Assembly: GCF_050320075.1 (NCBI RefSeq)
Contig: NZ_CP190018.1
DNA length: 64,000 nt
DNA from: Escherichia coli
GTDB lineage: Bacteria > Pseudomonadota > Gammaproteobacteria > Enterobacterales > Enterobacteriaceae
Reading direction: 5' to 3' (one strand)
The stretch's first letter is position 1. Each line of letters begins with the position of its first letter. The notes beneath the pieces are model-generated. The model saw only the letters and a list, made by a program, of their open reading frames with translations. It made no database searches and was not told the DNA's origin. This document shows positions 45,837-56,472 of this stretch, piece after piece. The position numbers and the translations under genes were made by a program.

Positions 45837-46958
45837 TTACGAAAGCCCGCTCCCCGCAAGGACTGACGCCAGATAGTTTCTGTCCATGGCTGCTTTTCGC
45901 ATCTTACGTCTTAACCCTGCCTTGAATACCTTATCATTCGTCAAAATATTAATAGCGATGTGCCGTATCCCTGAAAATAATTCTGCTGCGTTTCCTCTTC
46001 TTATTTTGCAGTCGTCTTCATTCATTACCACGTCCAGACGCCAGTGCAGCTTATTCTCCACGTGCCAGTGGTTTCGGATTGCTGTGGCGAACTTCTCTGC
46101 GGTTAAATCAGCAGAACTAATATAATATCTGACCGTCATTTCTGGCTCTTTCTTTTGTTCTGCTATTATTGACCGAAAGGAGACTGCCACGCATAATTTC
46201 TTCAGACCTTTCCATTCAAACGTGAAATCAATAAGTTCATCAGGGACATCGCAAACAATGTGAAGACGGATTTCTTCTCTGCCGTGACTCTTTTCACTCA
46301 TTGCGTAACTGTCATGCTCTGGATTATTTAATTCTTTCAGCGGAAATTTTTCCTCGAAGGCTTTATTTAGCCGCCCCTGGTTTCCTTTTACAGCGAATAA
46401 ATAATCACCTCCCTGTTTTTGTATCTTCTCTGCAATATCTTTCTGGCAACCCATCGCATCAGTTGTGATGATTTTTCCTTTAATATCCAGCATGTTAAGA
46501 AGTTCTGGGATAGCTATAATTTCATTGGATTTCTCATCCGTCCTGATCTGTCCGATGACCAGACTGTGCATTGTTGAGAACGCACTAATGACATGAATCG
46601 CTCCCTTGCGGCGACTCTTGTCATAAGAATGCCGGAGTGTTTTTCCATCAATTGCGATGACGTCTTTATCATCTGAAGTATGGCAATCTCGCATCCAGTT
46701 AATAAAGCACTCGTGAAATTTTGCAGGACTGATACAGGATACAACTCTGGCGATGGTATCGTGAACAGGAATACCATTTTCAAAATCACCGTATTGTTTT
46801 AAAAAATCGAGATGTGTTTCCCCAAAATCCTCTATATCTTCCCAACCTTCCGCACCCGAAATAACGGCACAAATAGTCAACAGTAGAATATCCGATAATT
46901 TATGTTCCACTTTCCAGGCTTGTCTGTAATCGGGGATAATAGAAATATGCCCCATCAA
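45837..46958 (-). CDS. ISAs1-family (H-repeat) transposase
   Basis: 373 aa; H-rpt/ISAs1-type transposase; directly downstream of an Rhs toxin-immunity pair. Confidence 0.85.
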
Positions 46959-47193
46959 TTTTTTAAGTTCTATTTTGTTCTCCTTAATTATGTAAGGAGT
47001 ATTTGATCATGTATAAGCAATAAAAAACAGCTTTAGGTAATGAGGAATATCTCAATTTTTAAACATAAAATGCGAATTATTTAGTACAAAAAAGCAGCGT
47101 TACGTGATCTTTCCCTGCACTTCACCCTAACTTTAATTTAACTTCAAGAAGTATTAAGGCCTCAATAGCGAACTTAATACTTCTTAAAGAATA

Positions 47194-47571
47194 TCACTCC
47201 TGACCAAAATCTTTCCACACTAATGCATGAGACTTTGATTTATCACCCAAAAATTTACTTACATCTTTCCAAAGTAAAGAATTGCTATCGGTCGCAGTGA
47301 CTATTGCCTCTATAAGCCCTGTAGCTACAACTGTGGCCAATTCATCATCAATCGAGACCATACCATCTTCGACATGTTTAAATATTTTTTCTCTTTCAAT
47401 ATCACCCATTTCATAAAAATTTTTTACAATCGTTTTTCCAATCTGAGAGAACAACATAACCACCGGTGGAGTTTCTGGATGCCAGTATTCATTAGCTAAT
47501 GAGACTGTCTCAGACAAAACAGTGGAAAACGATGCCATTTTTTCTATATAATTAGCAATATATTGGTTCAT
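47194..47571 (-). CDS. Putative immunity protein for the Rhs C-terminal toxin
   Basis: 125 aa, low-GC ORF starting at the Rhs stop; position is the only evidence. Confidence 0.5.
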   Translation of the reverse strand: MNQYIANYIEKMASFSTVLSETVSLANEYWHPETPPVVMLFSQIGKTIVKNFYEMGDIEREKIFKHVEDGMVSIDDELATVVATGLIEAIVTATDSNSLLWKDVSKFLGDKSKSHALVWKDFGQE

Positions 47572-50500
47572 TACTTGCCTCCCAAAGCATTCTGTAAATC
47601 CTGAAGAACGTTTTCTGCTGCTGCTCGATCCCCTGGAGATGCTGTTGGATTCTTATCCAACCAATCCTGTAAAGCCCTTGTATAATCCTGTGCTTTCAAT
47701 ACATGTCCTCTACCACCAACTTTTTCACCTGTGGCCAATTCATAACGAACAGCATCTGCTGTGCTTCCACTTCCTACTTTTGCATTTGGCCGATAAAGAT
47801 CGTCTATAATATTTTTCAAATTTGAATCTGTAACGTCAGGTTTTCCCATCTTCTGTCGCAATTCATCTTTATACCGTTCATGCTGCATACGATCTCTTGC
47901 GCTATTCTCATCTTCTGGTCCCCATCCTCCCGGGCTTCCCGTACTGCCACCACCCAGGCAGTTCTTCTCTTCCTCCGTCAAATCCTTCCCGACATTTGGA
48001 TTCTCTTTTGATGAATCATCATTTCCAAACACGCTGGAAAAAGCACCATAGGGATCTCGCCAGAATTCCATTTGACTTTGTGCATTTAATAATTCGGCTT
48101 CACCCTGCATCTCCATACTTTTCTCAATCGCGTCCCCAACAGCCTCGCGATTGTTGTATATTATTATACCACCACCAATAACCACCGTACCGACTGCCGC
48201 ACCGACTAACATCCCCGGAGGGCCTCCTACCGAACCGATCTCTGTACCTACTTCAGAACCAGTTCCCATGGCAGTTAATGCTCCTGCGCCCAACGCCGCA
48301 CTTAATCCCAGCGGATCCAGCCGTTGCACCGGGTTCAGTGGATACGCATACAGGTTCCATCCCCCCTTCAGCCCAATCGGATCCTGGGTGATATACCTCC
48401 CCTGTAGCGGGTCATAGTACCGGTGACGGTTGTAGTACAGCCCCGACTCCTCATCATACTGCTGCCCCGGCAGACGGAGTGACTGTTGAAGGTGCTGCGT
48501 GCTTTCCTCTCCCAGCAGGTTTCCCCACTCGTCATACTCCCCGCGCCACGCCGTTTCCCCTTCCGGGCTGATAAGCGCCTGCGGCAGCCCACGGTGGTCA
48601 CAGTGGTAAAGATGAAGTTTCCTCTCCGGGATGTATTCCGCCTCCAGTTGCGCCGCCATCTGTTCCGCCGTCAACCCACACTGTGCAAGCCACTGCTGGC
48701 TTTCTTCACTCACGCTGCCCTGCCGCAGTTCCCGCTCCAGCCTCCCCAGCATCACCGCCAGCTCCGCCGGTAGCGTCACACCCGTGTCCTCCTGCAACAC
48801 CTCCGCCAGGCTACGGTGCCGCGCCTTCGCCTGTTCGCCATTCTCTGTTTCGATTCTCAGGAGCGGCGTGAAGCTCCCCGGCTGGTATACCGTCTGGATA
48901 CGCGTGGTGTCGGTCTGTACCGTCGTCAGCCTGTCGCCGTCCCACCCGTACCAGGTCACCTCCGGTTTACGCGACAGCGACATCCACCCCGTCAGGTCAC
49001 GCTCCCGCCGCCACACCCGTTTTCCCGTCCGGCGGCCCAGCGGGTCATAGAGGTAGCGGCTCTCCACCTGTGGCTCGCCGTGCTGTATCCGCGTGTAGAA
49101 CACCAGGCGGTGCTGGCTGTCGTAATGGTAGTGGTGCGTCCGCTCGTCGTGCATCCGTATCACCCCTTCCGGGATACGGTCCGTCTTCTCCGCCAGCCTG
49201 CCGTATTCATCGTAGCGGTAGACATAGTGCGCATCTTCCGTGATGCGGTTATCCGGCCATGCCGTGAGGGTGCTGTCCGGGTGCAGTTCCGGGTCCGGCA
49301 GCCGGTTTCCTGCCGGGTCCGTCGCATACGGGATATCAATGTCCAGGTTCGCTGCCGTGGTGTGGACGCCCGTCAGCCTTCCCGTGTCGCTGTAACGGTA
49401 CTCCCGGCTCTCCTGCGGGCCGCTGATGCGAATTAGCTGTCCGTTGTCGTTCCAGTCGTAGTCACGGTCAAGCTGCGGAAGGTTCAGGTGCCTGCTCCGG
49501 AGCTGGCCGCTGGTATTCCAGGCGGTGGCAAGCTCATATGCCTCCCCGCCGAAGCTGCGGGCCGTCTCACGGTGCAGCCGGTCCCGCGTGTACTCGACCA
49601 GTGGCGTACCACCCAGCTTCATTCCCGCAAGATAACCGCTGCCATACGTCAGCCACTCCACCGGCGGCAGACCGTCCGGCTCCTGACGGGTCGCCAGCCC
49701 CTGTTCGCTGTACGCGTGCTTCGTCTCATGCTCCCACAGCATCTCCCCCGTCTCCGGGTTCTCCACCGTCTGCCGTTCGCCCGTCAGGCGGCCTTTATCG
49801 TCGTGGCCGTAGTGGACCGCCACACGGTGGCCTTCGCTGATATGGCTGATTTCTGTCAGCCAGCCGTGCTCATCATACTGCCACTGCTCCGCCGGGTCGC
49901 CGTTCACCGTCCGGTGCGTGATGCGGTCCGACGCATCGTAATGCCAGAGGGTGATAAGTCCCTCGTCTTCACTGTGGACAAGCTGCCCTGTGGCGCTGTA
50001 CCGGTAACGCTGCGTCCTGCCGTCAAAGCCGCGCTGCTCCGTCAGCCTGTCCACCGGGTCATACCGGAACGTGGACTGGCTGCCGTTCTCGTTGGTCAGC
50101 ACGGTGATGCGCCCGGCAGCGTCATACCCCATGCTGCGCGTCAGACCGCCTTCCGTCACACTCACCGGACGCCCGCGTTTATCATATTCGATGGTGCTGC
50201 GTTTACCGTCCGGTGATATCGTTGCTGTCAGGTCGCCTGCGGCGCTGTACTCATAACGGGTTTCACGCCCCTGCGCATCCTTCTGACTGACCAGTTGGCC
50301 TCGCGGGTTATAACTGCTGTAAGTGCTGATGCCTTCCTCCCGGTGAACGGCGATTTGTTGACCGTACCGGTCATACTCATACCGCGTCATGTACCCCGAG
50401 CAGTCCGTGAAGGCCCGAAGCTGACCGTACCGGTTTCGCGTTATTCTCCGCGTCACCCCGATTCCGTCTTCCACCGCGCCGGGCAGGCTACTGCGGGGGG

Positions 50501-50792
50501 AGTCATAAAACCAGCGCGTAATGTTACCGTTGCGCGAGATCTCTTCTGCCAGTCGGCCCTGACGGTCATATTTCCGGCTGCTGCGTAAACCATCCGGATA
50601 TGTCACTGAAGTCAGTTGCAACTGGCTGTTGTAACCATACCGTACCGTCCTGCCGTCCGGCAGTATCACTGAAGTCAGCTTTCCAGACGCCATATGCAGC
50701 CGGTACTCCGTCCGCCGTCCTGCCGCATCCGTCTGCGCCTTCAGCCTCCCCCGCCTCATCATACTCGCTGCGGGTGATGCTCCCGTCGGCAT
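47571..50792 (-). CDS. Rhs polymorphic toxin, core YD-repeat region and variable C-terminal toxin domain (downstream part of a frameshifted gene)
   Basis: 1073 aa; YD repeats; DPxGL boundary (RLDPLGL) then Gly-zipper segment and about 150 aa unassigned C-terminal domain. Confidence 0.85.
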
Positions 50793-52071
50793 GCTCCTTC
50801 TTCACCACACGCTTCAGGCCACCCCCGCCTTCCGTGTACAGCACCTCCCGCCGGTTCAGGCTGTCCGTGATGGTCACACGGTCCTGCCCGTACTCAAAGC
50901 GGTAGTCCAGCCCCTCCGGGTTGACCTGCTCCGTCACCCGCCCGGTATCATCATACCGGTAGCGGCTCTCCGGCCTCCCTGCATAATGGTGCGCCACCAT
51001 CCGCCCGGCGTGCTCCGCATCATAAGTAAACCCGCGCACCTGCGTCCCGCTGCGGTCATACACCGCCCGCAGTTCTCCGCTGGCCGTGTACGTATAGCGC
51101 GCCAGCGGCGCAGTCGGCTGTTCATCCGGGTATGCCGGGTCGTGTGTCAGCCACACCGCCTCCAGCCGGATACCGTTATCGGCACCGTATTCTGTACCGG
51201 CGGGCAGCGTATCGGGGAAAACCTGAGAAGAGGAAACAGAACGGGGACCGGCTGGAGAAGATAAAGAAGAGGCGCGCTGTTTACGGAAGGCTTCCGCCCG
51301 CTGCGCCTGCGTGCTCAGCGCCAGGTGAAAACAGCGGCCCGCGCCGTCCGTCACCCCCGTCACCGCACCCGCCACGTCACCCTCTGCCGCCCGGTGGAAG
51401 GCCAGCGTCCGCCCGAAGCCGTCCACCACGCCCGTCAGCACCCGGTATGCGGGCGGCTCCGGCGGCAGCACCTCGTCCGCCCCCGGCACCCGCTCCGGCC
51501 AGCCGAGCACCAGCCACTGCCCGGTTGTGCTGGCAGCCATCATATAGATGTGTGGACTCAGACGGACCGCTTCCGGCAACGCCCGCCAGAGCCGCGCAAG
51601 CGGGTGGCCTTTGTGCTGTTTCAGCACCCCGCACCGCGCCAGCCAGAACGACTCGCTGCGGCTGTAGCTTATCTCGCCGGGAAACAGGGGTTCAAAGTGA
51701 ATGCTCCTGCCGCCGCTGTCGTTGAGTATCAGGCCTTCATCGCGTATCTGTAAGCGGATATCGAAGGGGGCTTTCCAGCCGGGACCAAACCCCCCCACCG
51801 GCGCGGGCGTCCTGGTCCGGTAGCTGCTGTAGGCGCGGAAAAGAACAAACGGCAGCGGGCCGGACAGTGCCAGGTCGGTTTCAGCAGGCAGCACCTTCGC
51901 TCCCAGCAGCGGGTTTACCGGATTGCCATATTTCGGCGTGGCTTCCCCTGTGGGACACACCGAGCAGGCCACACCGGTTGGCGCACCTATCAGCACCCCT
52001 GCTGAACCCTGCACAATATCCAGTCCCTTGCGGGTCATGTCACCCTGCCGCGCCGCCGGTTTTCCACCCAT
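50566..52071 (-). CDS. PAAR-domain N-terminal part of the Rhs effector (upstream part of the frameshifted gene)
   Basis: 501 aa starting [13 protein letters not shown] (PAAR-like); overlaps the downstream ORF at 50566-50792 in another frame. Confidence 0.8.
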
Positions 52072-54288: not shown

Positions 54289-54497
54289 AGCAACCTCCGG
54301 GTTTAAGGAAAAACAGACAGTTCGCTGTTAAAGCGGCTGTAACAGTACAGTGTTACGCTTGCGTTCAGGCACGCTACCGCCGAAGTTTCCGGCATCCGCC
54401 ATCTCCCGTGAACGTAACCCCTTACTGACAACCTTTCTTTTTACGGCGTAATACAAAAACAGCATCCGGCCTAATAGCCGGATGCTGTTGGCTTAAC

Positions 54498-55016
54498 TTA
54501 TGCTTCCAGCGGTGCGCGCCAGTCGTCGGCACCGGAGGTGCCAGACTTGACGTGTTCCCACTCTATTTTGCGGTAGGCCAGTGAAACTTCGAGCAACTGG
54601 GTGAACTCGCGTTTCGCCGGATCCTGGCAATGCGGCATATGCAGTTTCATATCGACAATCGTCGAATCGGTCAGGCGGGTGGTGAAATAATGCTCCTGTT
54701 TGCCTTCCACAGAGGTACGCCACCAGTGAAGTTCAGTGGTTGGCAGCATTTCGCCGGAGGCCAGTGCGTTGTACATCAGCGGAACAGCTTTGTTCAGCGC
54801 CACGGTAAAAATGAACGGCTTGTGAGCACGCTGACCCGCAGGCTGGCCGGACTGAGGATCGGTCGGGACAGTAACGTTATGCAGGAATTCCTGCACCAGC
54901 ATCTCGTCTTCGTGCCCCTGCACATAGATGTTGCCGACAGAATCAGCGGTAAATGCACCTGCAGTAATATTTCCCTGGGTCTGACCAGTGATGGAGATAT
55001 AACACGGTGTTGGCAT
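54498..55016 (-). CDS. hcp: Type VI secretion tube protein Hcp
   Basis: 172 aa; Hcp-family sequence upstream of vgrG. Confidence 0.9.
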   Translation of the reverse strand: MPTPCYISITGQTQGNITAGAFTADSVGNIYVQGHEDEMLVQEFLHNVTVPTDPQSGQPAGQRAHKPFIFTVALNKAVPLMYNALASGEMLPTTELHWWRTSVEGKQEHYFTTRLTDSTIVDMKLHMPHCQDPAKREFTQLLEVSLAYRKIEWEHVKSGTSGADDWRAPLEA

Positions 55017-55712
55017 TTGTAAACTCCTTGTTAACGTGGTTAATTACTACTTACAATGACCTGCCGTTAATCCCAGACAGGCAGATGCAACTCACTTCAC
55101 GGAACCGCATCATTTTTCAGTATTTTTTACATACAAACCGAGCTAGAATTTACGGTTGTCGTAAAAACTATTTTTAAAATCATTAAATCTCTTATTCAGC
55201 AATAAGTTAATAATATATATCTGGATAACCATACCCAACTGTTCAAAGTCCGTATTGCCTCCATAAAATGGCCAAAGCTGAATCATGAATAAATATTGTA
55301 TTTATCCTTTCTGAATTATCATTTTGATAATTTTTGAGATATTCCTTAAAAATACCCACTTAATCAATCACAAAACAAATATATAAACAAGCAATCATCA
55401 GATTAGCTTATGTTTAATGAAATTATTATATAATTCAATAAGTTACATAAAAACTCTATATTTAAATTATTGCCATAATACACCTGACGCGAATTTCGCA
55501 GGTTCACACAATCTATTTAACGCTTGCAGAATACCTCTCTTTACGATCGATAAAAAGTCCTTTTCTTATTTATTTTGAAGCGTAGAATGCGGGGTGATGA
55601 AGGAGTGGTGATTTTATTTTCACCGCCATTAGGGCGGCATTGCCGATATTTTTTTGCGGTACAAATATGCCGTGTTCATGGCCTGTACGAGATAACATGA
55701 CGGATCACTTTT

Positions 55713-56213
55713 ATGAGCAAAAAATTTGAAGGCAGCGTCGCGCCTCGCGAGCGTATAAATATATCCTATGTCCCGAAGACGGACGGCCAGACGGCTGAAG
55801 TGGAGCTTCCGCTTAACATGCTCGTTGTCGGCGATACCGGAAATACGCAGGAGACATCCCCACTGGATGAACGTCAGGCAGTTTCCGTTAACAAGCACAA
55901 TTTCGGTGCGGTGATGGCTGAAGCAGCCATTGGCCTCAATTTTACCGTCCCCGCCACGCTGAAGGGAAGCACAACGGACGATGAACTGAATGTGGCGCTG
56001 AATATCAAGTCACTGGATGATTTTTCACCGGACAGCGTGGCCCGGCAGGTTCCGGAAGTTAATAAATTGCTGGAATTGCGTGAAGCACTGACTGCGCTGA
56101 AGGGGCCGATGGGCAACCTTCCGGCATTCCGTACCCAGCTCCAGGCATTGCTGGAAAATGAGGAGTCCCGCGAGCAGTTGCTCAAAGAAATCGGCCAAGT
56201 GAGTGGGAAATAA
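55713..56213 (+). CDS. tssB: T6SS sheath small subunit TssB (VipA)
   Basis: 166 aa; MSKKFEGSVAPRERINISY... Confidence 0.9.
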   Translation: MSKKFEGSVAPRERINISYVPKTDGQTAEVELPLNMLVVGDTGNTQETSPLDERQAVSVNKHNFGAVMAEAAIGLNFTVPATLKGSTTDDELNVALNIKSLDDFSPDSVARQVPEVNKLLELREALTALKGPMGNLPAFRTQLQALLENEESREQLLKEIGQVSGK

Positions 56214-56247
56214 CCACCACTATTTCATTAAACAGGGTTATCCAGAC

Positions 56248-56472
56248 ATGGCGGCACACAAAAATATCTCCGGGAAACACCCCCTCTCTGACGAAGACAT
56301 TTTGCAGGCGGTTTACCGGGTATGTTTCAGCCCGTCCGGTGAAATCAACCGGGATGGCGTGGATGCGCTGATTACAACACTGGATCGCCGTATCAGTGAT
56401 CTATTGGATGAGATTATCCATCTTTGTGAGTTTCAGCAGAGCGCGCCGTACTGGCGGCGCGTACTTCACTGA
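56248..56472 (+). CDS. Small hypothetical ORF between tssB and tssC
   Basis: 74 aa from the internal ATG of ORF 56203-56472; no recognisable family. Confidence 0.3.
   Translation: MAAHKNISGKHPLSDEDILQAVYRVCFSPSGEINRDGVDALITTLDRRISDLLDEIIHLCEFQQSAPYWRRVLH

Follow-up and report, generated by a model that had tools for sequence, protein, structure and literature searches.

The hcp-tssB intergenic region of the T6SS-2 island

The window analyzed here is a 64-kb stretch of the Escherichia coli chromosome with a mean GC content of 50.4%, and within it two divergent genes of a T6SS island are found. The hcp gene, encoding the Hcp tube protein, occupies 54498-55016 on the minus strand, and tssB (VipA), encoding the small subunit of the sheath, occupies 55713-56213 on the plus strand. 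Both are open reading frames with strong Pfam matches (T6SS_HCP PF05638, E = 5e-31, and PF05591, E = 1e-51, respectively), and both carry the corresponding RefSeq annotation, that of hcp being taken from a record of 100% identity. hcp opens a leftward operon, and is followed by VgrG and then by a frameshifted Rhs gene. tssB opens the rightward structural operon, and is followed by tssC, tssE, tssF, tssG, tagH, tssJ, tssK, dotU and tssH. In the RefSeq annotation of the identical record the island adjoins fadE-ivy-yafV.

Between the two genes lies an AT-rich divergent control region of 696 bp at 55017-55712, recognized by its composition, its presence in E. coli genomes and the published derepression in hns mutants. 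These limits, set by the flanking reading frames and their Pfam matches, are exactly those given in a preliminary description of this DNA. The spacer is 100% identical to that of strain 266917_2, and of 5426 complete E. coli genomes 2235 (about 41%) carry it as a single copy at no less than 95% identity, O157:H7 (96.8-97%) among them. The island is the T6SS-2 island of the EHEC literature, and the spacer is the bidirectional promoter termed t6sP in the EHEC papers (PMC13141884). In EHEC O157:H7 EDL933, t6sP lies between z0264 (tssB) and hcp3; locus and allele are the same, the 696 bp being 96.8-97% identical, the neighboring genes shared and the palindrome discussed below unchanged. It has been described by Wan 2017 (PMC5363993) and Vazquez-Lopez 2026 (PMC13141884), among others; in vitro it is silent, and deletion of hns derepresses it. 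The two versions differ by sequence polymorphism, with no functional difference apparent.

The tssB side has been described as one polycistronic operon, and the hcp side as interrupted by a terminator or regulatory spacer after hcp (PMC13141884). Just past the hcp stop codon in the window there is a strong hairpin resembling an intrinsic terminator, with a 14-bp stem and then a T run (54458-54489, minus strand); its counterpart in the 'h3R' hcp3-vgrG3 regulatory spacer is region I (PMC13141884). The Rhs/PAAR core gene downstream of vgrG (47571-52071, minus strand) is split into two overlapping reading frames, 47571-50792 and 50566-52071, is annotated as frameshifted in the identical RefSeq record, and is adjoined by an ISEc1-family transposase and a transposase fragment. 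On the other side, a hypothetical-protein gene of 74 codons (56248-56472, plus strand) lies between tssB and tssC in T6SS-2 loci of the window type; loci of the 21AR0303 and APEC types lack it, their tssC coming directly after tssB. Two small reading frames within the spacer, 55143-55286 (minus strand) and 55417-55578 (plus strand), were rejected as genes, with indels among E. coli alleles and an E. albertii deletion falling inside them. An Rfam scan of 54400-56300 at E ≤ 1 revealed no RNA family.

AT content and silencing by H-NS

The GC content of the spacer is 33% over its 696 bp and 25-28% in its core, compared with 50.4% for the window. In 200-bp windows across the spacer the GC fraction ranges from 0.235 to 0.36, and that of the flanking genes is about 0.52-0.55. 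The five 300-bp windows of lowest GC in the entire 64 kb all lie within the spacer (0.25-0.28, against a mean of 0.504). The AT content is therefore far above average across several hundred base pairs, the property by which H-NS-silenced xenogeneic promoters are recognized. The high-affinity H-NS motif TCGATAAATT occurs four times in the spacer where 2.4 occurrences are expected (P = 0.23), which is not a significant enrichment.

Silencing of the T6SS-2 divergent promoter by H-NS has already been published for the 97%-identical EHEC sequence. Deletion of hns in EDL933 raises z0264 (tssB) expression about 60-fold, and complementation reverses the effect (PMC5363993). Reporter fusions to t6sP and the corresponding mRNAs increase in an hns deletion, and in the same paper binding of H-NS to the hcp3-tssB region is stated with two earlier citations (PMC13141884). 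By RNA-seq and dRNA-seq the locus is almost wholly silent (PMC7618764). The preliminary description called the region a typical AT-rich promoter silenced by H-NS, and this half of its reading is correct, because the EHEC locus at 97% identity is derepressed in hns mutants; the AT-richness is nevertheless limited to the spacer, and the T6SS genes themselves have 50-55% GC. Kim, Lee and Yoon (2022, J Microbiol 60:928) reportedly mapped the transcription starts of EHEC t6sP and presented H-NS binding data.

Two further systems can be compared. The T6SS-2 hcp2B-vipA2 promoter of APEC/B2 strains occupies the same chromosomal site, separates divergent hcp and tssB genes, is about 705 bp long with 31% GC, and is repressed by H-NS (PMC5874247, PMC6534853), inactivation of hns there derepressing clpV2, hcp2A and hcp2B (PMC5874247). 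Unlike the window, this allele has a center that is largely unalignable and has no palindrome. The APEC hcp2B promoter is bound by CpxR-P (PMC6534853). The segment carrying its box (1672-1717 in our APEC-type locus) is an insertion that is missing from the window allele, and reading through 55017-55300 for a tandem GTAAA pair with 4-8 bp spacing revealed none. In the Salmonella SPI-6 T6SS an enterobacterial island is likewise silenced by H-NS at AT-rich promoter DNA, but the Fur site there lies at an internal clpV promoter rather than in a divergent hcp/tssB spacer (PMC10482370); this likeness is one of description.

The inverted repeat and the Fur consensus

Within the spacer there is a perfect inverted repeat at 55314-55332, with two 8-bp arms about a 3-bp spacer, AATTATCA-TTT-TGATAATT. 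Two -35-like hexamers fall on its arms, TTGATA on the plus strand and ATGATA on the minus strand. The preliminary description had proposed a Fur-box-like 20-mer at 55315-55334, and from it iron control of the T6SS. The sequence does exist, with its start at 55314, one base earlier. Its resemblance to a Fur box does not survive scoring: the match is 12/19 and 8.8 bits, no better than in shuffled spacer, the half-sites are everted and the left arm is unconserved.

We scored the region with a symmetric weight matrix constructed from 14 Fur-regulated promoter regions of K-12 (fepA-fes, fepD-entS, fepB-entC, fhuA, fecI, fecA, tonB, exbB, cirA, fiu, fur, ryhB, fhuE and fhuF), which gives the consensus GATAATGATAATCATTATC. 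Consensus matching was set against 1000 dinucleotide-preserving shuffles of the spacer. In a leave-one-out check of power, 12 of the 14 true Fur promoters exceed their own shuffles at P ≤ 0.05; this check replaced a diverged tssB locus taken as a Fur-regulated T6SS-1 positive control, which proved to be another T6SS-2-like allele.

No match to the consensus with three or fewer mismatches occurs anywhere in the 64-kb window. The palindrome matches at 12/19, and at least 12/19 is reached in 90% of spacer shuffles and at least 13/19 in 41%. Its matrix score of 8.8 bits ranks fourth within the spacer and is reached in 73% of shuffles. The highest score in the spacer is at 55288 (13/19, 10.1 bits), and shuffles reach this in 52% of cases (P = 0.49 in the promoter-versus-shuffle test). 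In the same test the spacer and five orthologous spacers give P values of 0.31-0.49 (0.31-0.47 for the orthologues). When local base composition is taken as background the palindrome scores 2.8 bits, compared with 7.2-19.6 bits for the known training sites. Scores of at least 8 bits occur at 24 positions in the 64 kb, mostly in coding sequence; in the spacer there are five such scores where 2.1 are expected, a mild enrichment (P = 0.07). The sole borderline measure is a register-free model of three NATWAT hexamers, which is matched at 14/15 (P about 0.095). After the spacer, the next highest AT content in the window is found at 46850-47300 (about 31-33% GC). Matrix matches of 8.9-10.3 bits occur in its vicinity (at 46763, 46769 and 47066), equal to those of the T6SS spacer, which shows that scores of this size follow AT content. 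Of the shuffles, 17% themselves contain a perfect inverted repeat having 8-bp arms and a spacer of 0-6 bp (9-17% for perfect repeats with 8-bp arms), and there is no second copy of the palindrome in the window or the island.

The arrangement of the arms also differs from that of a Fur box. They are Fur 7-mers in everted order, ATTATCA-N3-TGATAAT instead of the 7-1-7 order TGATAAT-N-ATTATCA, and each 7-1-7 reading of the palindrome therefore contains one perfect half-site with a partner that matches at only 1/7 or 3/7, which accounts for the score of 12/19. Thus neither a score above local composition, nor a head-to-head arrangement, nor conservation among orthologues is found. Rather than a canonical Fur box, the palindrome is an inverted repeat of AT-rich sequence such as arises fairly often at this composition, and its resemblance to Fur sites is of the degree that AT-rich DNA yields by chance.

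The sci1 (T6SS-1) promoter of EAEC provides a useful contrast. Like the hcp-tssB spacer it has weak matches to the Fur consensus, 11/19 and 13/19 compared with 12-13/19 (PMC3145626). However, its T6SS is of a different family, its promoter is unidirectional, and its Fur boxes overlap the -10 element and carry GATC sites, three in 53 nt (PMC3145626). No GATC occurs in or beside the palindrome, in contrast to the Fur/Dam switch of sci1. The nearest, at 55545-55548, is 210 bp from the palindrome, is the only GATC upstream of the tssB leader and is not conserved in E. albertii. Binding of Fur at sci1 was proven by titration assay and gel shift (PMC3145626).

We compared the spacer with those of E. 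albertii, Yokenella regensburgei, Citrobacter youngae, an E. coli allele of the 21AR0303 type and an allele of the APEC/B2 type, the latter recognized by exact match of published APEC primers. All five retain the divergent hcp/tssB order, with spacers of 635-705 bp and 29-34% GC. In E. albertii the left arm of the palindrome is AATCTCA, in the 21AR0303 allele it is ATTGTCA, and in strain MMC-J-0085 it is ATTATCG; it is not alignable in Yokenella, C. youngae or the APEC allele. Only the right half, TTTGATAA, is invariant among the alignable versions, which comprise three diverged alleles. The best Fur-matrix matches of the orthologous spacers lie at non-homologous positions with equal or higher scores, reaching 11.3 bits in the APEC allele. 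Of 2228 E. coli carriers, 1998 share an identical 40-bp stretch around the palindrome. The hcp-proximal half of the spacer as a whole is just as conserved, six sampled E. coli alleles varying at only 6 columns in 350 bp, and the identity is thus not peculiar to the palindrome. These six have 36 polymorphic columns in all, clustered at 55417-55516 and 55617-55666.

More broadly, the hcp/tssB spacers of E. coli fall into three strongly diverged alleles. The window/EHEC type is found in 2228 genomes, the APEC/B2 type occupies the same aspV-side site, and a third type, present in about 29 genomes, lies elsewhere in the chromosome and has about 70% identity over no more than the 170 bp nearest hcp.

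Constrained sequence and the working of the region

The comparison across genera places the constrained sequence in the blocks at 55272-55306 and 55527-55589 and in the two leaders, rather than in the palindrome. The central block, GCTGAATCATGAATAAATATTGTATTTATC (55272-55306), is 100% identical in E. albertii and 87-93% identical in the 21AR0303 allele, and its flanks diverge. It contains the Fur-matrix match at 55288 and, on the minus strand, a -10-like TACAAT (55300-55295) that reads TATAAT in the 21AR0303 allele. The tssB-proximal block at 55527-55589 (plus strand), GAATACCTCT ... AAAAAGTCCTTTTC ... GCGTAGAATG, has the deepest conservation of any non-coding block in the spacer, being common to the three E. 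coli alleles, E. albertii, Yokenella and Citrobacter. Within it TAGAAT (55583-55588, plus strand) follows the pattern T-A-[G/A]-A-A-T in all seven sequences, which makes it a candidate -10 element of a proximal tssB promoter. Its depth of conservation suggests that 55527-55589 is a better place than the palindrome to seek an activator site. The heptamer TACCTCT within GAATACCTCT fits the NarL/NarP heptamer TACYYMT, and AAAAAGTCCTTTTC is a near-palindrome. Inspection of 55480-55600 by eye for a sigma-54 promoter (GG-N10-GC) revealed none. Matches to promoter consensus sequences across the spacer are at shuffle level, 5 compared with 3.7 ± 1.8, and the promoter and leader roles that we suggest for the conserved blocks are putative ones, read from sequence and its conservation.

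The whole of the evidence is most probably explained by an H-NS-silenced bidirectional promoter and leader region of T6SS-2 in which the palindrome is not a canonical Fur box. The spacer, on the aspV/yafV side of the island, would drive hcp-vgrG-rhs leftward and tssBCEFG and the following genes rightward. Its extreme AT-richness would favor H-NS filaments that occlude both promoters, and this occlusion would keep T6SS-2 silent in laboratory culture. The parts under constraint would be the hcp ribosome-binding site and leader hairpin, 55272-55306, 55527-55589 with its TAGAAT, and the tssB leader. In the simplest reading the symmetry of the palindrome is incidental and only the TTTGATAA half, if anything, is functional; this constant half might most simply be core-promoter DNA or DNA bound by a nucleoid protein. 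As it stands the region is thus an ordinary and already described H-NS-silenced bidirectional T6SS-2 promoter. It is a widespread one.

Other roles for the palindrome can be envisaged. It could be the operator of another dimeric regulator or an architectural protein placed between the two promoters. Candidates by resemblance of motif, rather than by matrix score, are a LysR-type T-N11-A site (TATC-N5-GATA, as for LeuO or ArgP) or an IHF-like site (TATCAA, minus strand). The perfect 8-3-8 symmetry, present in just 9-17% of shuffles, the identity of the 40-bp stretch in most E. coli carriers and the constancy of TTTGATAA in three diverged alleles are in accord with such an operator, as are the LeuO and ArgP sites predicted in t6sP (PMC13141884) and the need for an activating signal. 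However, it is the symmetry that is not conserved, only one half being kept; the hcp-proximal half of the spacer is as invariant within E. coli as the repeat; and a second copy is lacking in the island. We regard an operator of this kind as unlikely. Alternatively, the arms could be back-to-back -35 hexamers of divergent sigma-70 promoters, TTGATA serving tssB and ATGATA, with the -10 TACAAT at 55300-55295, serving hcp. A promoter scan does place both -35-like hexamers on the arms, and the minus-strand -10 falls in the best-conserved central block and improves to TATAAT in the 21AR0303 allele. Yet promoter-like matches in the spacer are no more frequent than in shuffles, the plus-strand -10 of the arm-based promoter is unconserved, and a 4-bp insertion in E. 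albertii moves the left arm out of -35 register. This arrangement would also imply leaders of about 270 and 350 nt, and a 220-bp fragment proximal to hcp in the APEC allele is by itself active as a promoter (PMC6534853). We consider such a pair of promoters quite improbable.

Iron control, which had been suggested for this spacer, is unsupported by score, architecture, conservation or the experiments on related alleles. On this hypothesis a weak operator would lie at the palindrome or among the Fur-like hexamers clustered at 55288-55344, and Fe-Fur acting there would add iron-dependent repression of one or both promoters, visible only without H-NS. Consensus matches of 12/19 and 13/19 do occur at 55288 and 55308-55338, spaced in multiples of 3-6 bp, the hexamer model gives its borderline value, and the match at 55288 overlaps the conserved -10-like TACAAT. 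Since the proven sci1 Fur boxes are merely 11/19 and 13/19 (PMC3145626), scoring of sequence is by itself insufficient to dismiss weak binding of Fur. In EHEC lacking hns, TssB, ClpV and Hcp3 proteins are seen only in low-iron DMEM or M9-based medium (PMC13141884), from which it follows that a second signal exists, although DMEM and M9 differ from LB in many respects besides iron. Against this, the Fur scores of the spacer are indistinguishable from those of shuffles, the everted half-sites leave one poor half in each 7-1-7 reading, the left arm varies between alleles, and orthologous spacers score equally or better at non-homologous positions, including the unresponsive APEC allele. In APEC, neither clpV2 nor hcp2B responds to deletion of fur or to iron limitation (PMC5874247). 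DMEM fails to induce the system in wild-type EHEC (PMC5363993, S3 Fig; PMC13141884), and a published scan of t6sP lists sites for ArgP, CysB, CytR, Fis, LeuO and NarL/P, with Fur absent (PMC13141884). Documented Fur control of an E. coli T6SS concerns T6SS-1 only (PMC3145626, PMC5874247; reviewed in PMC10482370). Fur control of the spacer is therefore not supported, as opposed to refuted, because the APEC experiments concerned a diverged allele in hns+ cells, in which silencing would hide a second repressor. We judge weak repression by Fe-Fur to be very unlikely, and it is more doubtful still that the 55288-55344 cluster, palindrome included, is a low-affinity Fur operator masked by H-NS that supplies the second signal of hns-negative EHEC in DMEM or M9. 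If that were true, E. coli T6SS-2 would gain in iron limitation its first defined natural cue.

Returning to the H-NS-silenced promoter and leader region, the two leaders have features of their own. The tssB leader (55590-55712, plus strand) is predicted to be structured, 55590-55725 folding at -40.3 kcal/mol (z = -2.4). Within it, pairing between the invariant UGUUCAUGG (55673-55681) and UUUAUGAGCA (55710-55719), the latter spanning the tssB start codon, is possible in all seven orthologues and shows no covariation. This pairing might relate to the reported rise of tssB mRNA without TssB protein in hns mutants. Since none of the leader pairings in the spacer shows a compensatory change, we treat them as hypothetical. 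On the hcp side, the Shine-Dalgarno sequence AAGGAG (55024-55029, minus strand), read from the sequence, is invariant in six taxa. About 45-65 nt upstream of the AUG, the 5' leader can form a hairpin, CCUGUC-UGGGAUUAAC-GGCAGG (55060-55084, minus strand), with GGA in its loop, and a stem of different sequence is present at the hcp leader in the APEC-type allele, Yokenella and C. youngae. The hairpin may be a CsrA-type site or a stabilizer of the mRNA 5' end, and an action of CsrA on the hcp leader has also been speculated upon elsewhere (PMC13141884). The layout of the leader resembles a two-site CsrA target, with the Shine-Dalgarno AAGGAG providing the second GGA.
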